Source: Microbotryum violaceum (lineage: Eukaryota). From it: a DNA stretch of 64,000 bases. A model generated the notes under the pieces. The model saw only the letters and a list, made by a program, of their open reading frames with translations. It had not been told where the DNA came from and did no database searches. Within the stretch, counting starts at the first letter, position 1; each line of letters opens with the position of its first letter. Shown in pieces: positions 21,704-61,116 of this stretch. The stretch covers positions 868,001 through 932,000 of the forward strand of contig CDLV01000007.1 in assembly GCA_001244265.2 (NCBI GenBank), given 5' to 3'. The translations under genes were made by a program, and so were the position numbers.

Positions 21704-21750
21704 TCATTGGCAGCCTTGGGAGATATGTAACTCTCGTTTTTCATGTTGTG

Positions 21751-21860
21751 ACTGTTATTTCCGATCTTCGAGGAGTCACTGTTATTTCCGATCTTCGAGG
21801 AGTCACTGTTATTTCCGATCTTCGAGGAGTCACTGTTATTTCCGATCTTCGAGGAGTCAC
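21751..21860. repeat. Perfect 27-bp minisatellite, 4 copies (ACTGTTATTTCCGATCTTCGAGGAGTC)
   Basis: Units start at 21751, 21778, 21805 and 21832, with no spacers between them. Confidence 0.97.
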
Positions 21861-25600: not shown

Positions 25601-27366
25601 AGACAGGTAGAAGAAGGCGGGGATTAACTGAAATACGACCGTTTTGAACGACTGGATACCGGCCGGTGTTTCTGGAGGGTGGTAGAAGGCCAAACCAACG
25701 ACTACACCAATTCTGCTCATCGAAAAGACGACAATCAATCAGACTCATATGTTCTTCATGGTTTATTGTTAGGTCACGCACATGACAGCCTGCGCGAGGA
25801 AGCCAAGACTTTGGCCATAGTTTCGCGAGACGTTGCGCAGTCCTCGAACCGTCAAGTACCCCGTCTGGGCGATCCACCCCGGCCTTGCGTCAACCCGCTC
25901 TTGTCGCATATTGCCCTGAGAGCGGGAGTCTCTCCTCGTGATCGCGCCATCTGCGTCGCCGTTCAGACCCGCTTCCACCTTTGCAATTTTCGAATCGTGT
26001 TCGTCGGTCAGGCTCTTTGTGCGGGTGGCGAGTTCGTAGGCGGTCCAAGCCAAAACAAGCTTGTTGACTCGCTCACTGGACTCGACCTCCGCGATAACAT
26101 CCCTCGTATCGACGCTCGAAATGTCGATGATAAAGTCAAGCGGGTTGGCCAGCGCGGGCAAAGGGTGACCCAACTTGTTGAAATAGTCGAGAATCGACGC
26201 TTGAGGCCCAGAATAGACGACGGAGCCGCGAGAGAGGAGTGTGATCGTGTCGAAGAGCTTGAAACAATCTGATCGGGGTTGATGGACACTCAGGACGATG
26301 ATTCGACCTCGTTTGGCCAAGGCACTCAGGGTTTCGAGGAGAGCGAACGCGGTGAACGAGTCCAAACCTGTGGTCGGTTCGTCGAGCACGAGTACTGAAG
26401 GCAGGGTGACCAACACGCAACCGATCGACAACCGACGTTTTTCTCCACCCGATATGCCCTTGCGAAACGGTCCACCGACGATGGTTTCGGCCGCATCGCG
26501 TAACCCGAGCTCGTTGATCGTCTGCTCGACGATCGCTTCCCGTTGCTGGCGGGTAACCGACCGAGGTAGTCGAAGCGCCGCCGCGAAGGTTAAGGTTTCC
26601 CGCACAGTGAGATAAGGCAGGAGGAAGTCTTCTTGTCGAACGTATCCGATGAGCTTGCGAGTATTGACCTTGCCCTTGCTACGAGTCGCCCCAGTCGGGA
26701 TGGAACCAAAGTCTTCAGGGGCAAAGGTGACAGATCCGGAGGATATCTCGAGAGTCGTGTTCCGACAGGCTATTGTGTCGAGAAGGGTACTGTTTTTGAA
26801 TGAGAATCGAGAGCCTATGTCAGCCTTTGCGTAAAGGGAGGAGCATTCAAACGGAGCTCTGCGGACATCGCCGAAACTTCGAATTATGCGCAGAGACCGG
26901 ACTCACGTTTTCCCAGACCCCGACCCTCCAATTCTGGAAATTCGAAAGTCAGTATTCACCATCTCGTATCTCTGGTGCGAGGGCACGCAGTGCAGGTCGG
27001 ATCGAGGACTGTGTAGAGTCCGAGGCGACCCCTATTCGCAACTCACAATGCCAACACCTCACCGGCGCGGACCTCGACATTGACGTTCCTCAAGAGCTCC
27101 TTGGCGAGCAACTCCTTGCTCTTGTTGAGTCGCTTTTGCACCGATCGAGGTACGGTGATGGGGATTGCGAGAGGGATGCTCCATTCCGGCGGTGGCGCGA
27201 CGATGGACAGCGACTTGACGGAGAGCGAGTACGACTCTGGAGCGGGCAGTCCGGCTAAGCCTGTTTGGGACGGACCAGCGTTGGGGCCTTCAATGTCCAT
27301 GGCCGAAGACCCTCGCAAAGATAAGCCTGTTTGGGACGGACCAGCGTTGGGGCTTCCAATGTCCAT
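22634..27366 (-). CDS. Full-size ABCG transporter (NBD-TMD-NBD-TMD, YOL075C-like), multi-exon
   Basis: Two NBDs: GISGGEKRRLSIG...LDEPTTGLD, and IMGPSG|AGKSS...GISGGEKRRLSLA...FADEPTSGLD. Each is followed by an ABC2 membrane domain. The protein ends ...ALRVRVATL*. Confidence 0.93.
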
Positions 27367-27388
27367 GGCCGTAAACCCTCGCAAAGAT
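27256..27388. repeat. 66-bp tandem duplication covering the ABCG start codon
   Basis: TAAGCCTGTTTGGGACGGACCAGCGTTGGGGC...CCCTCGCAAAGAT occurs at 27256 and 27322 and encodes MDIxxPNAGPSQTGL twice. Confidence 0.92.
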
Positions 27389-44149: not shown

Positions 44150-45560
44150 CTGACATTGCGCGGGCCGCGATAAAATTGACTTGGCGCCAGTACCGTTCGA
44201 ATGAGTTGCTCTTTCAGCGACCAATAACTTTCACTGTTTCCGGTGGAATCCCCTCGAGAAGGTAATGGGTGGCGCCACCGATACGGAAGGAGTGACCGGA
44301 TACGAGCGGACGATCCGCTAGCGATGTGGTACTCGGGATCCCGTCGCGTGCAGCAAAGTCGGAAATGAGACGGGACTCCTGATCTCGTCTGCTGAATCAG
44401 AGTACTCGGGTCATGCGGGCGACGGCTGATTCGGTGGTCTCGGGGATCGGGCTGGAGTCGCCTAGTCGGGAAGTGCAGATTCGGCTAACTCGGCCTAGCG
44501 CCACATGAGCGGATAAAAGTTCAGGACGAAGTATGGCGTGATCAGGACGAAGTATGGCGTGATCGGAGGGCCGAGTGTCGAAAAAGAGGAGGAAGCTGGC
44601 CCGGAGGGGTTGGAGTGTCCTGGCGTCGGAGGGGAGTTCGCTTCTTGTTCTTAAGGTAGACAACTTCTAGGATCCGATACAGCATCTTAGCTGGTTCTCT
44701 CTTTCTGCGTGTTTCGTTCTCGTACTTGGTCTCGTTTTACCTTGTCATTTTCATATCATCTTTGATCGACCGCTTTGCTATACCATAGCGGCCTTCAAGG
44801 TTTGATTCACACGCGAGAGGAACCGGGATCGAGTTAACGGAACCCATCGTCCCTTAGATTGGTAGGAGAAAAGCGGTTGATCTTGCGGAGGGTCCGTTTG
44901 CAAGTGCAACGAAAGCAGGTTATAGGGACAGGGACCTTTCCCCGATTGCGGTGCGATGAAGTCACCTTGATGACGTTGTACCTTGTCGAACGGTAGGTGA
45001 AGCTCGATTCGAGGTCCCACACGAAGAGCAGAGATCGAGGGATGCATCCTGACGGTTGACGGCGTGATTGGTGGATGAGACGGATCCTCAGGCGAGGAGA
45101 CGGTCAGTTCGCCGATCCTTGCCATGCCATAGAACGAAACGGCAGCACATGCGATGACGGCGAGGTCTTCAGGCTCCGAAACTTCCAGAAGACGGATCAG
45201 GCAATCCAGGTCAGGCAGCTCGAAAGGGCGGCGAGGTGCCTTCCCGAGAGGCGAGATGTTCTTGGCAGCCTTATAGACCATGTCTAGGCCGATCCTGTCT
45301 GCGTTCCCCTCGAGACCGTGAGTCAGGCAGGCTCCAGAATCGGAAGGCAGACGCATAATGTCGGATGGTGAATTGCCGAAATCGTGACACAGCAGCAAGG
45401 TGATCGAAATAATGTCGCATGTTGTTCCAGTCCATCGGGAAGCGGAAGGTGGAGTCCACCTCTTCAGAGTCACACCAGTCCAAGTATCGCGCGATGCAGC
45501 CTCCATGAGTGTTCAAGGTATTGGGCTGGATTGAGGATGAAGCAACCTTGCGACGGTTTT
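44150..45560 (-). pseudogene. Tyrosine recombinase of the retroelement, frameshifted and split by the solo LTR
   Basis: N-terminal YLDWC...TIRHYASAF, box I FYGMARIGEL, CPYNLL, PLTRSRFLSRVN, and box II SGHSFRIGGATHYLLEGIPPETVKVIGR*KSNSFERYWR at ~44180-44300 (Trp mutated to stop). Confidence 0.9.
44325..44787. mobile_element. Solo LTR (463 bp) inserted in the YR gene
   Basis: Termini TGTGGTA...TACCATA (a mutated TG..CA inverted end). Flanks GCGA/GCGG. It separates contiguous YR coding sequence and has an internal 21-bp duplication at 44521-44563. Confidence 0.7.
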
Positions 45561-46312
45561 CAATCTCGGAAATTAAGATCGATCTGCGACAGCCGCTTGG
45601 CAAGACCGGCGTAGCGAGGAAAGGGTGATCGTGGGGGACGGTCCTCACGAAAGAGCCGGTCAATCTGTGCTCGGGGACAAGGTTGGTTGTGATAGTAGCC
45701 CACCCTGCGAACGTGCTCGTGTCGTCGAAAGCTGAAGCGACAATGATATCGTCCGAGGGGTTGCGAATGAGACTGGGGCCCAGGATCGCCCTTGAGCGCT
45801 TGAGCTCCTCGACTTGCAGAGGTGTTGTTCCCACTGCGATCACAGCGCGTTGTGCCGCAGGCTCCTCGTGGAAGCCGGGGAGCACTGTGGCGGTGGTGGT
45901 GGCGCTAGGTCGGGCACCATTCTTTGTACTTGAGATTCCATAATCGCCTCTTCGAGAAAGGTCTGACAGGTTGGAGGCCGGGGTGGTGCTACCGGAGGGC
46001 TCCGCCGAGCGGTCGGTAGCCAGACCAGGTGAGGGCCCGGCGGTCGCCGAGACCCGGTTAGCGAGTGTATTATGGATCACACGGGTCAACATGGGTGAGA
46101 GAGGGTGATTTGGGGAATTTCTCTGTCGTACACGATCAGGCATCGCTTGCAGAGATCGAATTTGTATGTAGGAAGGAATAGGGTAGTGGGCAAAAGAGCA
46201 CAGTTCGAGGCGCAGTTGACAGGGGTGTCTGGCACTGCCTACGTGCAGCGTCGTCATCGGTGACGTCATGAACACAACGAATGTACTTGACTGACATACA
46301 CACAAAAAGAAA

Positions 46313-47547
46313 GGGTAAAGGACAAATGCCCTCGCTTCTATTCATGAGGACAGAAATGCCCTTCTCAAAGGACCAAAATGCCCTCAGAGTCTCGACTTCT
46401 TTAATACTTGATATATCAGCTCATAACCAAGAGGGTAGCTTCTTGTAGTCGTTGTGATCAGCGCCGTATACTCAGAATCCCCAGAGATGCCGTGAGAATT
46501 CATATATCACGGTTGCAAAGTCAGGGCCCTATCGCGACTGAAGCGAGTCCAAGTCGAAAGCGAGCGATGAGTATAGACCGAGTGAATTCCATATGAAAAA
46601 GGCCAGCAGTAGTAGCATTGACAGTCTTGAAGCCTTATGCTCAGATTCAAATGGCCTATCTATCTATTGTATGTAACTCGATTGTGACCGGGGCCTTTGC
46701 AGAAACCACAGATCGCGTCGCGCTTGGACCTCTCGTCCGCACCCCGGAACCTGCGTTTGATCGGACGTCGTATACGCTTGGAGAGATGTGACGGAATGAT
46801 AATGACACCCTCTTCTTCGTCAGTTGAGTCACTATCGTCCACTTCACCATGACCTCATGACGCTCACGAGGAAGACGATGCAGCTTCCATTCAGCCCGAG
46901 ATGGAACAGGTTGGAGCGGTGTCGCGTAAGTCTGCACTTGCTGTCGCCGGTGTGCAGCAGCGATCGGTGACTGTGGGCTTCATTAAAGACAATGATGGTC
47001 CAAACACTGCATTCTCCTTTGGAGATAGCAGTGGCAGAGAAGGAGCACGGAGGATCTTGGACACTCTTGCTCACGACGCGTGTCAGACTTGCGAATGTCG
47101 AACTGAAACTGGTGATCAAGCGCATATTGATGGCCCGCATCTGTGAGCTCCTTCTTATCGTAGAGGCTTTCCCCCTCCCTGAAAAAACGTTCCATTGTCG
47201 AAAGTCGGTGGTGACTTCGATGTCGAGGCGAGAATGCGGAAGTTGGCCAACGTCGATTCGCGAACTCGGGCGCCTCGACGCGTCGACGATCGATGAGGAC
47301 CCCTGACTTTGCGACCGTGATATATGAATTCTCACGGCATCTCTGGGGATTCTGAGTATACGGTGCTGATCACAACGACTACAATAAGCTACCCTCTTGG
47401 TTATGAGCTGATATATCAAGTATTAAAGAAGTCGAGAATCCGAGGGCATTTTGGTCCTTTAGAGAAGGGCATTTCTGTCCTCATGAAAAGAAGCGAGGGC
47501 ATTTTCGTCCTTTCGCTATCTTTCGAGGGCATTTTTGTCCTTTTCTC
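46313..47547 (-). mobile_element. Internally deleted Mutator-like (MULE) DNA transposon, 1235 bp
   Basis: TIRs of ~215-245 bp (46313-46526 and 47301-47547) and a perfect 9-bp TSD AAAAAGAAA (46304-46312 and 47548-47556). Remnants of an N-terminal DNA-binding region (FREGESLYDKKEL...FDIRKSD), a SWIM-like WKLHRLPR.RH and a zinc knuckle CGFCKGPGHNRVT. No DDE core was seen. Confidence 0.9.
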
Positions 47548-49494: not shown

Positions 49495-49765
49495 ATGCGG
49501 CCGTATGAAAGGTGTAAAGGTTGAGTATGGTCGTATGATAGAATATGGCCGTATGATGGAAGTGAAGCCCAATCTACAAACTACTAAAAACTGTCGATTA
49601 TGGTCGTATGATAGAAGTACAGCCGAATATGGCCGTGTTATGATATAAGAAAACGGAATATGACCGCCTTATGATATAAATAATGTCGAACATGGTCGTA
49701 TGAGAGAAGTGAAGTCGAATATGGCCGTATGATAGAGAAAGACCCCGAACATGGCCGTATGAAAG
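49495..49765. repeat. Cluster of about 9 degenerate (A)TATGGCCGTATGA motifs between gag and pol
   Basis: Copies at about 49497, 49525, 49543, 49599, 49628, 49658, 49691, 49720 and 49750. Confidence 0.85.
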
Positions 49766-49901
49766 GTGCGCGAATTGCGACTAAACTCACCACATTGTGA
49801 TGACACCACAAGGTCAGAATTATTTAGTCCATGTATATATGACGGAAGCGAGGGCTTGACAGGCGATACTGAGTGTCCAGAGTCAGGCACGATCGGAACG
49901 A

Positions 49902-51282
49902 CTACGACGGGCCCCGGCCGGTGTCGCAATGGTCCGAGGAATGCAAGCCGTTGTTGAAGGCGAAGCACACTTGGCGATTTGAGGATTTAGGGTACAAGGC
50001 TCCGGACGAGGAGCGAGTGAAGGCATCCGAGTCAAATTTGCGGCAGAGATGAAAGGGTGGGTGATCCAAGGACGTCAATCCGCAAACGATGCAGAACATG
50101 GAGCCGTTGCCGGAACGGTTGGCCGCGAGCGGTCGAGTGTCGTAGGGTGGTGTCGAGCGAAAACCATTGTCGAACGAAGGGCGAAAGTTAGTGTCTGAGG
50201 ATCCACGCAAGGCGTTTGGAGGCTGGTCACGCGGAAACGACGCTCCCTGGGGAACCGAAGGGCGGCTGTACGAAAGACGGTTCGCGATGTTGGGCGTAGA
50301 ATTTCCGCTCGGGTCGGAAAAAAGGCGCTTCTTGGGCTTGGCTGAGACCTGGGAGTAAGCGTCACGAACGACATCGGTGAGGGTAACGGAGGACTCTGTG
50401 AAGAAGATTTCTTTCCTCTTTTCTTCCACCGAGGCCACCATCGCCTCACCTTCGGCCTTCGACAAGCTCCACAACTGGGTAGAAAGGGAGCAGGTACTCG
50501 CCGTGTAATTGAGGTGGTCACCGGTGGGGCGATGGCAACGGTGCTCAGCCGTGATCATGGCTTCCGGGTTGAAATCGGAAACGTCGCATGATAATGCTGT
50601 TCGATGCCGTGTCGCTACAAGACCTCGCCAAGTGGGTCCAGAAGTTCGCCCTCACGACGATGTCGTACTCAAGTCACAGGGGCCAGCTCTTCGAGGTAGC
50701 GCGCATCGCGACTCGGGAAAAGTGTTGTAGGAACGCTTCGCCCGTGTTGGTCGTTTTGAAAATGTCAGCCATCAGGGCGGCGTACAGGAATGAGGCCGGC
50801 TGCCACTCGTCGAAGGTGAGTAAGTGATCGAGCTGGTGACCTAGTTGGAGAGTCGCCGAGCGGTCCTTGGTCGTGGCGAGAGAGATAGTCTGACCCAGCT
50901 TCACCTTGATGCTGGCTCCATGCGTGAACAGACTCATCGGGATCGCTTCTGGTCTGGCCGCCTTGGACGCGATGTCAAACAACTCCAACGAGACGGTGAT
51001 TGGCGAGTCCGTGTAGGCCGAAACCAAACTAGCACGAGAGTGGGACGTAGTGACGTTGTAGGAACTGAAAGACTTCTTGTGGGAGCCCGATGCCCCCGCC
51101 TGGAAACTCAGGCTGTAGAGTTCGCGACCGAATGAGGCTACTAAGTCCTGCGGGGCCGCCCCACCAAACGCGTTCGCACCCGCATCAGCGGCACCAAGGC
51201 CGATGCCACCAGCACCAGCACCGCCAGTACCAGCACCAACGGGACCGCCAGCACCCACCGCTCCGCAAGCACCAAGAATAGG
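49902..51282 (-). pseudogene. gag-like ORF1 of the retroelement; its N-terminus continues at ~55840-55950 beyond the TIR element
   Basis: Gly/Ala-rich N-region, LTFDEWQPAS, and a Cys/His cluster CIVCG...H...C...VCFAFNNG...HC upstream of RT. Confidence 0.7.
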
Positions 51283-51728
51283 CACCTCTGGCTCAATACA
51301 TAAGCACGCTAAAAAGTGGCGCGCGCGGCGCGCCTTCGACCCTCGCTTCCGCGCGGCGTAGCCATACATGTTGCCCGCCTGCAACCCGGGTTGCTGGATG
51401 GCCCCAGGACTAGGGCAACTTGCTAATGAGATTGACTTATTATTAGGGAGTACTTGTGCAATCGCCCACAGAGCTGTCTCTTCTAGCCTCCCCCCGCTCA
51501 GCGCAAAATCAGACCCGCCTCAGTTCTAACACGAGCACCAACTATTGTAACACACAGTAACACATTCTCGAATCAATATACGACATTTGTATCGGACAAT
51601 GGGCAGGCATAAATGGAATCGCTTCAAGTTCTGACCTGACAGGCTACTTCGAGGGACATCCTGACTATAAGCCCCGAGGCCTTCGTTCGGACGCTCGAAT
51701 CCGCACCAACATCCCCGGAACCCGGCAC

Positions 51729-52979
51729 ATGGTTACGTACACTGCGCGCCAAATTCAGCAAAGAACCTTCGATGAACATGCTCGTGGCGAAGCTAGCTCG
51801 CCGTCTCCTCGGCCTCCAATGGCCCCTCCGATACAGGCCGATTTCGACGAAGCCGCTAAACCGAGTGGGATGGATTGGGATGATGAACGTCACAGCGAGT
51901 ACGGTGGGGGCCATGAACGCGACTTTAGTCCGGCCCCATATTTTTCGGATCGAACATCCCGTATGCCAATCGCGCCTGACTATATTGCAACCGCCGAGCG
52001 ATTATCATTGGCTGCTCTGCGCCAAGTCGAAAGTTTCGAACCAGCCACACGTGGTCAGTCGAAGAAAGAAACGTACAAGCAGTTTGTGTTCAACGACGCT
52101 CGTCTAAGGAGCTTGGAACGGCCAGCGCTTCTGCGCCAGTATATTGCGTTTTGCGCTGGGGCAGAAGCGAAAAAGAGGTGGAGGGAGCGCAACAGTTTTG
52201 AAGGAGTATAGGACCCGCATCCAAGACTTTGACGACATCCTCGCGCGCATCTTCACCGTCCCCGTTGACATTGCCGCCGAATATGAGGAATCGCGCCTAT
52301 TGCGTGAAATCCTTTCACCCCTGTACCAAGAGTGCCAACGCCCCCTCCCGACATCCTCGCGCGCATCTTCACCGTCCCCGTTGACATTGCCGCCGAATAT
52401 GAGGAATCGCGCCTATTCCGTGAAATCCTTTCACCCCTGTACCAAGAGTGCCAACGCCCCCTCCCTGAGGACGAAATAAGGACCGACGAGGACCAGGAGG
52501 GGAGTGACCGCCTTTTTAAGATGGATCCAAAAGGTGTACCGCCCTTTTCTCGGGAAACGTGCCCCGGACGAGTACTGGGATCAGTTAGAAAGCGAACATC
52601 GCACCTGGCAAGCAGCGCTCAGACCATTTGCAACGACGGTGCTTGTCAGGAGTAGGTCCAAGCTTTACCACTAGCCTACGCTGACCTCAAAAAGGTACAA
52701 TATCCACTCTGAAAGGAGTGGACAGTTTGGTACTATGTATGGCCAACCCCCAGTGAAACGAGCTAGGAATTGCAGGATTACTGGTTCATGACAGTGCTCG
52801 TCCACGTTCCCGAACCTCCCAAGCCGCCCACCGATGCGGACCGAGAGCCCGAAAGGAAGAAGATCTGGGACTCCTGGATTGTTGAGTGTGCCCACAGGTG
52901 GTTGGCGCTGTTGAGCAAACAGAGGGAGACGTATCGTTGGATGCGCAAGAGGGGTCCAGCGGAGAGGGTGCCGCGTTGA
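51729..52979 (+). pseudogene. Cargo gene of unknown function inside the TIR element, disrupted by frameshifts
   Basis: Protein-like ORF segments at 51729-52211, 52350-52655 and 52770-52979 in shifting frames. Confidence 0.45.
52233..52465. repeat. Near-perfect 116-bp tandem duplication (frameshifting)
   Basis: CGACATCCTCGCGCGCATCTTCACC...CCCCCTCCC occurs at 52233 and 52349. Confidence 0.95.
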
Positions 52980-53264
52980 CCTCAGGGGCACGAGAGGAGG
53001 ACGCGATATCGGAACACAGTTCGGCGACAGGCCAACATTCCGACCACGGATCAGCAGCCGGCTCGGAGGCCAAAAGCAACCTTTCCGCCCTCTCCGAGCT
53101 GACCAGCCTGAGCAAGCTGGAGCGCGGCCTGGATACTGGGACATGAGGCACCATGAGTGTCAATTCACCAGTTAGACAATGACCGTCTCGAGTTTTCCGT
53201 AAGCGTGTGTAGCCACCTAGCTTGTATGTTATGTTGATGGAGATCCTGCATTGCAACCATGATT

Positions 53265-54124
53265 CACCCCGAGGGTACAACGCACTCCGAAGGCGGAAAT
53301 TCTTGTTCAATTTTTAACCTTAGGGCAGGGCGTAGATACACTACAACAGAGTCCCGCGCCTCCGGAAATGAGAAAGCGGTATGCGACGACATGCTTCATC
53401 AATTCTAGGACACTCTCAACAAGCACTGTACAACCGGCGTGGCGATGTGTACCCGCCGGAGGTACACACGACCGGTGCCCTCTCCAGCTGTGTACCCCTG
53501 GGGTTCCACGGCTCAGGCGCGGTCCGTCGCCGCCGACGGCCTTGCTGACTGCACTACAACAAACTTCCACGCCCCCGTTCAAAGCTCAGGATGTGTCTGG
53601 GGTTACGGAATGAAATAACCTCTTGCGACGAGACCGACGAAAAATTTGTTTGCTACATCCGACTTGCACTCTGAAAAGCCCGCAAGGCCAACGCACTTCC
53701 CTAGCTGAATTCTTCGTTCGAATCAGCCTCCGAGCAGAGCAGAGCGAAACTGCACTACAACGAACTTCCACGCACCCGCTCAAAGCCCAGGATGTGTCTG
53801 AAGTTACCGAAAGGATTCACCTCCCGCCGTTGGAGACTCGTATATGTTATTATACAGTGATCTGCCACCGGTGACCGACTTTGCACCCCCGGGGGTACAC
53901 AAGGCGCAAGCGGGAAAGCGCCTGTGTACTCCCGGGGGCACGCAGGACTGGTCCACTCTTCCGCTGTGTACTCCCGGTAATGATCACACCCCCCGCGCCG
54001 AATGACTGTGTACCCCCGGGAGTACACAGCTTTGTCGGCGGCACAGGCCGGGTCCCTCGGGGTTACACTCTTGTACTCTTGTCGCGCGCCGACTCTGTGT
54101 ATGGGTACCCCCGGGAGTACACAG
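53265..54124. repeat. Array of ~24-bp palindromic repeats (consensus CTGTGTACCCCCGGGRGTACACAG) with unique spacers, period 42-43 bp
   Basis: Copies start at about 53445, 53488, 53879, 53922, 53964, 54006, 54048 and 54101, with a partial copy at ~53265. Confidence 0.85.
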
Positions 54125-56576
54125 CCCCTACAAGGTCCTTGGCCGATGGACCGATATCCCTGCTCACTCGACTACATAAACTATCACGTCAACGGAGTAG
54201 GTATGCGGTGACGTATTTCATTGATTTTTGCTGACATGTTATCGCAAGCACTGTACAACGGAGCGCCGTTGGACGCGTCTGGACCCATGCTTTGGGGTGC
54301 TGTTGGAACAGAACAACTACAGCAACACCAATCCTCACCGCCCCCCGCCCCCCTCTGGCAACGTTCCCAAACCTGAACCTGCAGATGTCAGCATCGATGC
54401 GCATCAAATTTTAGTCTTTAACTTAGTAGAACCTTCAAGCTTGTCACGTACTGCAGTTCGATGAGTGTGGCGGTGGCGACCGGCTCGTGGGATCGTGGTC
54501 GTCAACGCGTCAACGCCTGATTAAGGCTGACATTCATTTTACTTTTGTGCACGGGCGTACATTTCCACCATGTGCGATATGGGCCGCATACAAAAAGCAA
54601 AGTCCTTCAATAACAAATAATCTACAGTCAACAAATGCGCCAAACCATCCCTAGCTAGCCCATGGGCTCGTCGAGAATCTCGAGGTCGTCCGAGTCCTCA
54701 ACGCTTGTCAGCCCGACTCTCCGTCGCCCTCCCCGAGCTCAGCATCATCTTCTTCCTCGACCTCGTGCTCCGATCGTGAACCCAAAACTTCTTCCACTCG
54801 TCTTTCATACACATCATCGCGGTCTCGCTCGGCATGCTCCGCGGCTGGATCGGGGGTCAGGCCAAGTTCCCTTCGGAATGCGTCGAGGTCGATGGTTGTG
54901 TGGCGCACGTCCACGGCAGAAGGACCTGATGAGCGGCGGCTCGACTCAGTGACGAGGCTCTGTATTTGAGTATTATTCAGCGTCGAAAGGCGGCGACCGA
55001 AATGACGTGGACTACCGCGCGACCGGCGCAACACCTGTTTCGCCCGTCCGGCGAAAACTCCTCCGATCAAACCGAATGCCGTGGGCCGCGATTCATGAAC
55101 TGCGGGTAAACGGGTAAACGCATTCTGAGCCAGACAACCGAGAGATCATCGCATTCGGCGAGCCGATCCAGACGCTCTTTGACCAAAATCTGCCGGCGTT
55201 GAAGCACATACCACACCGCAGTGCCAACCTCGCCCGCGGGTGGAAGCGGCAAACGCTGACGCGTTGCTGGGAGCAGACAGGAGAGGCAACACATCGTATG
55301 GTCGGTGGGCTTCGATTCAAGATATACGACAGAAAGCGTGAGGGAACAGAAAGCAGTAAGACCAGGACCGTGATCGATAGCGGCGCGTCAAGCGGCAATG
55401 CTGTTGCTCGCTCGCGCTCAGGCTCGCTACGGCTGGTCTACCAGCGTGGTGAGACGGCACGTGACTTAACCACGTCCATCAATGCTACCTTGTCCCCACC
55501 GCTAATGAGGTAATGATGTAATGATGTTCTAATCGAGCTTCTTCTCGCTACTAATCTAAAGAAGAAATTGACGATGAGTTTTCCGAATATGCTTTATACA
55601 CAATGGCAGCATTTATAAGATTGGATTACCCCGATACGAGCTTGCACGTACATGAGATGAACGTGTTGAAGGCCACACCAGCCTCCGTGTTGCGCTAGTT
55701 CTCGCGCCATCCAGCAACCCGGGTTACAGGCGGGCAACATGTATGGCTACGCCGCGCGGAAGCGAGGGTCGGAGGCGCGCTGCGCGCGCCACTTTTCAGC
55801 GTGCTTTGCTTATATATATAGCCAGAGGTGAAGAATAGTTCATGGTCATCACTGACGGAAGTTGCCTGGTGCTTCAGCCGCAATAACACCTCCATTTTTA
55901 TATTTTTATTTTTTATTTTGCCGTTCCAAGTTTGAGTTGTAGCTAGTCATACCATGTCTTTGATTAAGCCCATCACGAATGCCCTTCCACCGTCACGAGT
56001 CCGACTCGGCGCTATAAGTCGGCGCTTACGCCGAGCAAAAGATCCAAGCGCCGTAATTCACGCGACACATTTTGCCGGTTTGCCGTCTGCCTCGATCGAT
56101 ACGACTAGCTATAAGGGGCTTCTTCGCCGCCCACTTTGACACCGCGGGACTGCGAAGGTGTGTGACACAACCGTGAGTGTCACCTCTGGAGCTGTCTACT
56201 CTGTCTGTCCCGCCAAACCGACCTTTGGAATCGTCGAGCGATGGCGATTCGGCCAGGTGTCGTCCATTGCTCGGCCGGCCTCCGGCTATGCGAACGCATC
56301 CCCTAAGCTAGCCTGCAGGACGTGTTCTTCAGCGGTGACTACCCGGCCATGCAGCCGGATACGGATAGGACCCTTTCGTTGTTGCGGGTGCCGAGTGCGT
56401 AAGCGGCGATGAGGCCGAGCCCTCCACCCCCGATCCGGACGGCGACACCTCGACTCGACTCGACGTCACCGCGCACACTACGTGACCCGAGACGACGGCT
56501 GTGACAACACCTACCGCAGACTCAATGTGCTGACCGAACAACTTGCGTCTCTTGAACGCAGATAGATTCAGCCAGG

Positions 56577-59284
56577 ATGGCGCCTGCCCAGTCCAAGCTT
56601 GCACGAACGACCTCGAGCTTGCCAGGTGGATCGGCCTCACTGGCCGTTCCTTTACTCGTTGCACTCTACTATCTCCGGAAACGAACCACCGATGCGGCGA
56701 CCAAGGCAAATCTGCGTAAGCCACTGGGAATTTTCAACTGTGTGGTTGTGCAGCACGGTAGCTGACCACTCCTGGTCTCCGCCTCCTCACCGGCTCCTCA
56801 CCCCACTTGTCTCATACCCGATCCCGTGTTATGCCTCTAGGAGGAGTGCCTCTGACAACACCACAACTGGAGATGGCCCAGCGTGACCTTTATAAGCCGC
56901 GAGTCCCATTTTATGACGTGTTGACAGAACTATGTGGAGGACTAAGAGGCTCATCGTACCGCTGAATGTCGGCCTCCACAGACTTTCGGGGGGCGCACGC
57001 GAGCTGCTCGTGCCTTCGAGAGGCCGCGTCTCCAAAGTCCTCATCCGACCGACAAAGCAATCGACTTTCGAGGCCCACCGACCATTCTTTCGGGCACCCA
57101 AGAACACGCCTGCTGCAAGCACGACTTCGGCGGGCACTCGAGCGCAAACGGCCCGCGTCGGGGTCAACAAGGAATTTTTCCGCCAGATTTCGGCCATCTT
57201 CAAGATCATTTTCCCTCGCTTGACGAGCAAAGAGGTTTTTCTCGTCGCGACACATACCAGTTTCTTGCTGCTACGGACATATCTCTCGCTGCTGGTCGCC
57301 AAGTTGGATGGACGACTGGTCGGTGACCTCGTCTCGGCGAATGGGAAGGGGTTCATCCGAGGCCTCGGGCTGTGGTTCGCTTTGGCTGTCCCCAGCGTGT
57401 ATACGAACTCGATGATCCGCTACCTCCAGCAGAAGCTGTCCATCTCTTTCCGGACGCGTCTCACACGCTACGTGCACGATCTCTACCTGTCGCCGAAGAA
57501 CACCTTCTACAGCATCGTCAACCTCGACGGGCGGATTGAAGGCGCCGATCAGTTTGTTACGACTGACATCGCGCGGTTCTGTGACACATTGTCCGCGCTT
57601 TAGTGAGTTCCCAGCTCTCTTTGATTCCCGATATTGCACCCTGCTGACCGATGACGTTGCTCGACACTCAGCTCCAACATCTCTAAGCCCACGCTGGATC
57701 TGATGTTATTCAACATCCAGCTTGGTCGATCAATTGGAGCCAAGGGTTCCGGTGGTCTATTGGTGTCGTACGTTTTGACGGCATGGATCTTGCGCAAGGT
57801 CACACCAGCGTTCGGGAAGCTCGCCGCCATCGAAGCCAAGCTCGAAGGTGATTTTCGCAATGCCCACTCGCGCCTCATCATCAACGCCGAAGAGATTGCC
57901 TTCTACGACGGTGCGAGCATCGAAAAGGACATTCTCAATCGCGCTTACTTGCGTCTGATCAAGCACGTCAACTCGATCTTCAAGATCCGCATCTTGTACG
58001 GCATGATTGAGGACTTTATCGTAAAGTACATGTGGTCAGCTTGTGGCTACTGTCTCATCTCGATCCCTGTCTTCTTCGCACCCAAGCACACGGGCGCCGA
58101 GAACTCGGTCGAGACCGCCGAAACGGACGGGAGGAAGGTGGCACAGCGAACCGAAAGCTACATTTCGAACCGACGGTTGCTGCTCTCGCTTGCGGACGCG
58201 GGTGGACGACTCATGTACAGTTGGAAGGACCTGTCTGAGCTGGCTGGCTCGACCTCGCGTGTCTACAGCTTGCTCTCGACATTGCACGATCTTGATGCAA
58301 AGCGCTACCAGTCCGTCCCTCGACCGGTCGACCTTGCCGCTTGCAAACCCTTCTACGATCTCGGCAGTGTGACGGGCGAGCTCATGCTTGAGCCTCGATC
58401 GACGGCGCTCAACGAGCCTGTCGCTGTGTCGTTCGACGATGTGCCTATCGTCGCTCCCGCCCCTGGTATGGCTCGAGGCGGAGAGGAGCTAATCAAGAAG
58501 CTCAACGTCAAGATTCACCGAGGCGAGCATTTCTTGATCACCGGACCCAACGGATCCGGAAAGACCTCGATCGCTCGTGTGCTGGCCGGTCTGTGGCCCG
58601 CCTTCGAAGGCGTCGTAACCCGCCCCCAGGACGAGGACATCTTCTTCCTCCCTCAGCGACCTTACCTCAGTGCTGGTAGTCTGCGCGACCAGATCATATA
58701 CCCCCACTCGTACCCTGACTTCGTCGCGTCTGGACGCAGCGAGGCGGAATTGCTCAACATCCTCAAGCACGTGCATTTGGCGTACTTGCCCGCTCGTGAA
58801 GGTGGACTTGACACACGTAAGGAGTGGAAAGATGTTCTCTCCGGTGGTGAGAAACAACGCGTGAGTCCTACTTCTTTTTGGTGCCGATGCTGGGTAGATG
58901 AGGAGTGCTGACGAGTTAGATGCTTGGAGCTTTTAGATGGGTATCGCTCGATTGTTTTATCACTTGCCCAAGTACGGTGTTCTGGACGAATGCACCTCGG
59001 CCGTCTCGACCGATGTCGAAGGGATGATGTATCAACACGCCAAGGACCTCGGCATCACCCTCATCACCATCTCGCATCGACCCTCGCTCTTCAAATACCA
59101 CCATCATCTCTTGCGTCTCACGGGAACCGATGGGGAATGGGAGACGACGCAGATTGGTACGGCGGCTGAGACGTTGTCGTTCCAGAAGGAGATTAATTCT
59201 CTGACCGAGAAGCTTAGCGATGTGGATACGTGGAAGGCGCGACTCAAAGAGATTGAGAAAGAGCTCGCTTTCACTACCACATGA
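56577..59284 (+). CDS. PXA1: Peroxisomal long-chain fatty acyl-CoA ABCD half-transporter, Pxa1 type (multi-exon)
   Basis: [17 protein letters not shown]-like [41 protein letters not shown], Walker [22 protein letters not shown] and LDECTSAVS. Confidence 0.92.
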
Positions 59285-61043: not shown

Positions 61044-61116
61044 CGACTGGACCAGGAGTCGAACCTGGGTCGCTTCCATTCATTGGAAAAGCTTTGACCA
61101 ACTAAGCTATCCAGCC
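61044..61116 (-). tRNA. tRNA-like gene with an atypical anticodon arm (nominal anticodon TGA); possibly a pseudo-tRNA
   Basis: Acceptor stem GGCTGGA/TCCAGTC, D-arm GCTT-AGTTGGTCA-AAGC, T-arm CCAGG-TTCGACT-CCTGG, anticodon arm TTTCC-AATGAAT-GGAAG, a 4-nt variable loop and a downstream TTTT. Confidence 0.75.

Follow-up and report, generated by a model that had tools for sequence, protein, structure and literature searches.

A phased array of near-palindromes in the non-coding centre of a terminal inverted repeat element of Microbotryum violaceum

Results

The Element and Its Genes

A stretch of 64,000 nucleotides from the anther-smut fungus Microbotryum violaceum (assembly GCA_001244265.2, contig CDLV01000007.1, positions 868,001 to 932,000 of the forward strand; hereafter the window, numbered from its first letter) contains a 4.55-kb element bounded by a terminal inverted repeat (TIR). 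In the centre of this element lies an array of eight copies of a 22–24-bp near-palindrome with the consensus CTGTGTACCCCCGGGGGTACACAG, which were located within 53445–54124 by sequence reading and repeat finding (Table 1). The array is real, regularly phased and non-random.

The two TIR arms differ by 7–11%, as they were aligned over 118 nt at 93% identity in one search and over 142 nt at 89% in another. Because the same 8-mer, AAGAATAG, adjoins both ends as a target-site duplication (TSD; 8 bp exact, or 9 bp with one mismatch), the TIR element that a first-pass annotation of the window had proposed is confirmed. The palindrome with a CCCGGG core which that annotation had noticed in the TIRs (CAACCCGGGTTG) was also found, exact at 51382 and with one mismatch at 55715. 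Six of the 16 CCCGGG sites of the window fall inside the element, two of them at mirror positions in the TIRs and four in the array.

The element carries the remnants of two convergent genes. Relatives of gene A (three, P0001–P0003) and of gene B (six, P0004–P0009) are all hypothetical proteins of Microbotryum silenes-dioicae, the closest being 98% identical; since these nine relatives are spread over several contigs, the element is multi-copy. No further copy was found within the 64-kb window. The gene models P0001 and P0009 start inside a TIR. In a tblastn search none of the nine homologous gene models mapped to 53147–54654, and the array therefore sits in a non-coding centre between convergent stop codons. 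The copy studied here is dead: gene A has lost its frame to a tandem duplication of 116 bp, a length that is not a multiple of 3, and gene B has a frameshift near 54708; intact relatives of gene B end ...EDSDDLEILDEPMG. With its copies at 99% identity, the duplication is very recent relative to the remaining decay of the element.

At a cut-off of E ≤ 0.1, no Pfam family was detected in the ten open reading frame (ORF) translations within or overlapping the element or in the flanking ORF 49905–50651; none was found in P0001–P0003, and no Pfam domain is precomputed for P0004–P0009. The MULE transposase domain in particular was found neither in the tested ORFs of this element copy nor in P0001–P0003, nor is it among precomputed domains of P0004–P0009. 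Judged by these searches, the element appears to carry no recognisable transposase. AlphaFold models of the gene A and gene B proteins were too poor to be used (mean pLDDT, the predicted local distance difference test score, 43.4 and 38.9, respectively), the Atlas gave no result for P0002, and an exact look-up of six ORFs of the window in protein databases returned no match.

TIR elements account for 12% of the transposon sequence in Microbotryum lychnidis-dioicae (PMC4469406) and occupy, averaged over the genomes of Microbotryum, 0.42% of base pairs (PMC10502011). A description of the palindrome or of the element family was not found in the Microbotryum or motif-string literature, as judged mostly by titles and the openings of abstracts, nothing specific turned up on small RNAs and hairpins in Microbotryum, and information on the transposon superfamily was not found in supplement files 1–12 of the 24 that accompany PMC4469406.

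Table 1. Coordinates of the element, its gene remnants and the repeats of its central region (window positions).
Feature	Position	Strand	Remarks
Left TSD, AAGAATAG	51274–51281		Read directly
Left TIR	51283–51419	+	Contains palindrome GCAACCCGGGTTGC at 51381–51394
Gene A remnant	51729–53146	+	Several exons, no known domain, stop 53144–53146; P0001–P0003 map here
116-bp tandem duplication	52233–52465	+	Two copies, 99% identical; shifts gene A frame
Central non-coding region	53147–54654		Between convergent stop codons, holds all repeats; no homologous gene model maps here
Partial B box, CACTACAAC...	53339–53364	+	First of three copies, steps of 213 and 201 bp
A box, copy 1, GGTATGCG...CAAGCACTGTACAAC	53378–53434	+	
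Palindrome copy	53445–53469		1-nt insertion
Palindrome copy	53488–53511		20/24 to consensus
B box, 75-nt copy	53548–53622	+	85% identical to 53749–53823
B box, 75-nt copy	53749–53823	+	201 bp after the 53548 copy
Palindrome copy	53879–53902		21/24
Palindrome copy	53922–53945		21/24
Palindrome copy	53964–53987		Left half only
Palindrome copy, best	54006–54029		23/24; 11/12 arm pairs
Palindrome copy, degenerate	54047–54070		Start 54047/8; about 13/24 to consensus, right half alone recognisable
Palindrome copy	54095–54124		6 nt inserted in left arm; core 54101–54124
A box, copy 2	54200–54259	+	822 bp from copy 1
Gene B remnant	54655–55740	−	Convergent with gene A, stop 54655–54657; P0004–P0009 map here
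Right TIR	55689–55830	−	
Right TSD, AAGAATAG	55831–55838		Identical 8-mer adjoins right end

The Palindrome Array

Every copy listed by the first-pass annotation is present, including the one at 54006–54029 that it had singled out as the best. The palindrome consists of 11–12-nt half-sites in head-to-head pairs and thus has two-fold symmetry. Six of the eight copies are recognisable, with mismatches to the consensus at 1–4 of 24 positions, and two are badly decayed; as the repeats are 63–73% alike overall, the degeneracy pointed out earlier is borne out. The copies at 53445 and 53488 form a pair with centres 42 bp apart, and the main run of six starts at 53879, its centres following one another at 43, 42, 42, 41, and 54 bp. 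The near-regular spacing described before thus stands, while its individual steps (43, 42, 42, and 42) need correction at the end of the run. A spacer length of 18–19 nt is kept across five intervals. When inverted, copy 53922 is slightly nearer to copies 54006 and 54101 (22 and 21 matches, against 20 and 18 uninverted).

Searched with up to three mismatches, a 22-nt pattern matched four times in the window, always within 53880–54123, and none of 100 dinucleotide shuffles gave any match. For 12-nt half-sites (up to two mismatches), 12 occurrences were counted in 53150–54660, where 0.06 would be expected from the density in window positions 1–51000. Over the whole window, the number of 11-nt half-sites (up to two mismatches) did not exceed that of mononucleotide shuffles (21, against a mean of 20.05), but 13 of these 21 fall within 53446–54113. 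The signal is therefore one of clustering and not of the window-wide count. An enriched cluster of short motifs inside a TIR element, as observed here, is one of the features expected of a cis-acting binding-site cluster of a transposon.

Repeats and Spacers

Five units, each of a 24-nt repeat and an 18-nt spacer, were held in register and compared pairwise. The repeats were identical at 152 of 240 positions (63%) and the spacers at 46 of 180 (26%), the random expectation being 27% (Fisher p = 1e-14, with pairs that are non-independent). This pattern of conservation in repeats versus spacers is unusual. Because the spacers are alike at random level, a uniformly decayed 42-bp minisatellite is rejected, and Tandem Repeats Finder (TRF, score ≥30) did not report the 42-bp array either. 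Spacers that are diverged copies of one 42-bp minisatellite unit had been named by the first-pass annotation among the findings that would overturn it.

The same annotation had called the spacers of about 18 nt unrelated to one another, which is true of 12 of the 15 spacer pairs but not of all. Homology was detected between spacers 53469 and 53946 (p = 0.007) and between spacer 53988 and the 3′ portion of spacer 54072 (0 of 300 shuffles); the pair 54030/54072 gave p = 0.037. In local BLAST comparisons, 53923–53977 aligned with 53446–53501 at 77%, the spacer being included in the duplicated block, and 54085–54125 aligned with 53994–54030 at 80%. Moreover, spacer 54030 looks like a repeat that has lost an internal stretch (0 of 1,000 shuffles), a likeness which the other five spacers do not share. 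At fewer than four mismatches, no spacer matched elsewhere in the 64-kb window. The architecture as first described, conserved palindromes separated by spacers that are constant in length but mostly unrelated in sequence, all inside a TIR element, is therefore present, except that the spacers are not all unique.

The central 1.5 kb of the element is a repeat mosaic, in which the 75-nt B boxes follow one another after 201 bp and the A boxes lie 822 bp from each other. Each B box contains a decayed right half-site (GGGGTTAC), and the central region looks like generations of one palindrome at differing stages of decay. These observations are consistent with a neutral internal repeat, in which copies of a functionless, hairpin-prone palindrome accumulated through slippage, small inversions, and unequal exchange; the better-kept palindromes would then reflect differing ages of duplication and not selection. 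The duplicated blocks that contain spacers (the 77% and 80% matches), the spacer that is itself a decayed repeat, and the death of the element copy by duplication and frameshift point in the same direction, and internal tandem repeats have been described in transposons (PMC4079207, PMC7492417). However, spacers of neighbouring units agree no better than chance where the repeats are 63–73% alike, TRF reports no array, and no known slippage process copies 24 bp yet swaps the adjoining 18 bp at constant length. We regard the neutral repeat as a close rival of the binding sites discussed below and as possible, if on the doubtful side.

Coding Capacity

The ORF that the first-pass annotation had seen across the array exists on the plus strand (53875–54234), and an antisense ORF (53755–54171) is also open over it. 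As the 42-bp step is divisible by 3, a protein repeat of 14 residues, encoded by either ORF, had been offered as an alternative. However, copies 53879, 54047, and 54101 translate to HPRGYT, VPRGYT, and YPREYT, whereas copies 53922, 53964, and 54006 translate to CVLPG, CVLPV, and CVPPG in the other frame within the same ORF, and the first ATG of the plus-strand ORF comes only at 53980. No homologue of this ORF was found among proteins of 65–209 amino acids (77 candidates, none scored), and none of the minus-strand ORF in 1.84 billion representatives; neither strand gave a Pfam family, and none of the nine related gene models covers the array. Since the reading frame changes between copies of one DNA repeat and protein homologues were not found, we discarded the protein repeat, to which we give next to no chance.

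RNA Folding and the Guide-Array Comparison

A search of Rfam over 51000–56000 (E ≤ 1) returned a single match, to mir-187 on the minus strand at 53880–53946, which is sub-threshold (24.5 bits, E = 0.054; gathering score, 58); no CRISPR (clustered regularly interspaced short palindromic repeats) or omega-RNA family was found. On both strands the 281-nt array folds better than its shuffles (plus, z −4.5; minus, z −4.0), an effect of pairing between adjacent palindromes. The stretch 53877–53947 folds at −48.5 kcal/mol (z −6.8; none of 200 shuffles as good) and thus forms a stable hairpin such as the precursor of a microRNA-like locus would have, and 53962–54031 folds at −32.0 kcal/mol (z −5.9). 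Taken singly, three of the eight hairpins beat nearly all shuffles, and two no longer fold.

In the eight aligned copies, 76.0% of cells were paired, against 75.0% in shuffled alignments, and 191 of 500 shuffles reached the observed value, in a test that is weak with eight paralogous copies from a dead element. The covariation score of this alignment was likewise the same as in shuffles. The check for hairpin covariation that had been suggested with the first-pass annotation thus came out negative.

The layout of the array had been likened to a CRISPR-type array of guide or hairpin RNAs. In a CRISPR-like or TnpB/Fanzor guide array, the repeats would be processed to guide RNAs and the spacers would target foreign nucleic acid, and the alternation of hairpin repeats with fixed-length, mostly unrelated spacers is indeed similar. 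However, no linked effector nuclease was seen, as the Pfam search of the ten ORF translations and of the flanking ORF was empty, in agreement with the earlier remark that no Cas, TnpB, or Fanzor ORF is visible. The repeats are degenerate, with two of the eight decayed beyond folding, where near-identical direct repeats would be expected; two spacer pairs are copies of each other, no spacer matches elsewhere in the window at fewer than four mismatches, and the spacers are only 18 nt long. As a nuclease, an Rfam family, and hairpin covariation were all looked for without success, nothing beyond the layout speaks for a guide array, and we rejected it as highly improbable.

A different role at the RNA level would be that convergent transcription from both TIRs yields hairpin or double-stranded RNA, which is diced for self-silencing or marks the 3′ ends of both transcripts. 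A palindrome gives the same hairpins in transcripts of either strand, convergent ORFs flank the array, and P0001 and P0009, out of nine gene models, start in a TIR. The long hairpins formed by neighbouring copies and the folding of the whole array on both strands also fit, and in M. lychnidis-dioicae a Dicer, two Argonautes, and an RNA-dependent RNA polymerase are present and all expressed (PMC4469406). On the other side stand the lack of covariation, the small number of single hairpins that beat the shuffles and the two that do not fold, an Rfam search whose sole match is far below its gathering score, and a fixed 42-bp spacing without an obvious rationale in RNA. We therefore consider such an RNA-level element unlikely.

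Other Features of the Window

Within 55831–58911, to the right of the element, lies the gene of an ABC half-transporter of peroxisomal type (Pfam ABC_membrane_2 and ABC_tran; ATG at 55954). The right end of the element is about 120 bp upstream of this ATG, which places the insertion in the promoter region of the gene.

A second inverted-repeat element of 1.2 kb was found at 46306–47523, with arms of about 224–234 bp that are 94% identical. By eye, several copies of a GAGGGCATTTTNGTCC-type motif can be seen in its arms, so that this TIR element, too, has clustered short repeats. Two long ORFs on the minus strand (44778–46341) adjoin it, one of which weakly matches, at E = 0.023 and 15.6 bits (cut-off, 27), the SAM-like N-terminal domain of phage integrases. 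From this match, the ORF may be the remnant of a tyrosine recombinase of Crypton or DIRS type; DIRS elements make up 1% of the transposon sequence in M. lychnidis-dioicae (PMC4469406). Tyrosine-recombinase sites were considered as an identity for the palindromes and dropped, the Phage_int_SAM_4 match being below its cut-off, 7 kb away, and outside the element.

About ten copies of a ATGGYCGTATGA-type motif are irregularly spaced over 49499–49770, and short tandem duplications occur at 21748–21860 (59 bp, 98%) and 27256–27388 (67 bp, 94%). The sole tRNA gene of the window, for tRNA-Ser (anticodon TGA), is on the minus strand at 61044–61116; with this position of the only tRNA, a tRNA- or SINE-derived element (short interspersed element) was set aside. 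Helitron 3′ hairpins were also set aside, as no CTRR-type terminus, which is their criterion, was seen by eye after any copy.

Discussion

The likeliest account of the array is that the palindromes were helically phased sites for a dimeric DNA-binding protein in a once-active element, and of the two readings offered by the first-pass annotation it is that of phased binding sites which survives. We advance this tentatively, as a plausible explanation whose chance we put somewhat short of even; protein binding, the identity of the binder, and the effect of binding are what we infer. The dimeric binder could be the transposase of the element family, an accessory factor, or a host factor. A step of about 42 bp corresponds to four helical turns and would place all sites on the same face of the helix. 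In the active ancestor of the dead copy, the cluster might have acted in cis as an internal operator- or enhancer-like block. The array itself expanded and was rearranged as blocks of one or two units were duplicated locally.

Two-fold symmetry, spacers of fixed length and free sequence, and a step of about 42 bp together fit sites for a dimeric protein on one face of the helix. In support of binding sites, the repeats are conserved over the spacers (63% versus 26%), unlike a uniformly decaying 42-bp unit, the spacer length is held at 18–19 nt while its sequence varies, the array is non-coding, and both TIRs carry a smaller palindrome that has its CCCGGG core in common with the array. The six better copies, at 1–4 of 24 positions off the consensus, could be compatible with near-perfect sites at the time of insertion, given TIR arms that are themselves 7–11% apart.

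Several points weigh against binding sites. A candidate binder is absent from the evidence, as far as can be judged from gene A and gene B, which have no Pfam family and no usable structure model. Known clusters of transposase sites are subterminal. The cluster described here is central, with about 2.0–2.8 kb of the element to its left and 1.7 kb to its right. The conservation was measured among paralogous units at one locus, in one element copy, and is not a comparison between copies. Two of the eight palindromes have decayed badly, the run closes with a step of 54 bp instead of 42, and the duplicated spacers together with the repeat-like spacer make it clear that ordinary repeat turnover occurs here.

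Ac/Ds and En/Spm elements carry subterminal repeats that bind transposase, and Tc1-like elements carry inverted repeat/direct repeat (IR/DR) sites. The array resembles these in having many short motif copies in a TIR element, intervening sequence that is not conserved, and motifs in both orientations or in inverted pairs. It differs in its central position, as theirs lie within a few hundred bp of the ends, in its full palindromes of 22–24 bp at a fixed step of about 42 bp, and in that no transposase of the family is known.

Long TIRs and a TSD of 9 bp (8–11 bp) characterise the Mutator superfamily, but a TSD of 8 bp also fits hAT elements. It fits Zisupton as well (PMC12730594). In architecture alone, the element is similar to MuDR/Mutator of maize, with a length of about 4.5–5 kb, long TIRs, two convergent genes, and an intergenic centre; MuDR has long TIRs and two convergently transcribed genes (PMC3440606), and Mu elements have TIRs of about 215 bp and a TSD of 9 bp (PMC2774946). 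The element described here has TIRs of about 140 bp and a TSD of 8 bp, or of 9 bp if one mismatch is allowed. The MULE domain was not found, and neither gene resembled mudrA or mudrB in the searches run.

Arrays that lie inside mobile elements and are subject to local duplication are also seen in the foldback element Tetris and in the satellite-like repeats borne by Helentrons (PMC4079207, PMC7492417). Their units are arranged head-to-tail and are homologous over the full length, while here only 24 of each 42 bp are homologous and TRF reports no array.

Bacterial clusters of repetitive extragenic palindromes (REPs) or interspersed mosaic elements (BIMEs) and CRISPR arrays share the layout of palindromic repeats alternating with short linkers, and only the layout. 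REPs often lie between convergent genes. They are palindromic repeats of 20–40 bp (PMC3733652). Unlike in these systems, the repeats described here are degenerate and lie in eukaryotic nuclear DNA, and no RAYT, Cas, or TnpB gene was seen.

A more specific version of the binding sites would make the array an operator or enhancer block, internal and helically phased, in a family of fungal TIR transposons, with the same dimeric protein also binding the CCCGGG-core palindromes of the TIRs and so joining the ends and the centre. The block could in addition give identical hairpins from both convergent transcripts and thereby allow self-regulation by RNA interference. This combination is quite unlikely in our estimate. 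If the operator or enhancer block were true, it would be a eukaryotic counterpart of an internal transposition enhancer.

Whether the palindromes are binding sites or a neutral repeat, the array is not a eukaryotic CRISPR-like system. As a neutral internal repeat, it would be an ordinary by-product of transposon decay. Microbotryum has been studied for the build-up of transposons on its mating-type chromosomes (PMC10502011). Should the palindromes be genuine protein sites, they would be a compact, testable case of an internal cis-element that organises a eukaryotic cut-and-paste transposon, and they would point to the protein that moves this element family in Microbotryum.

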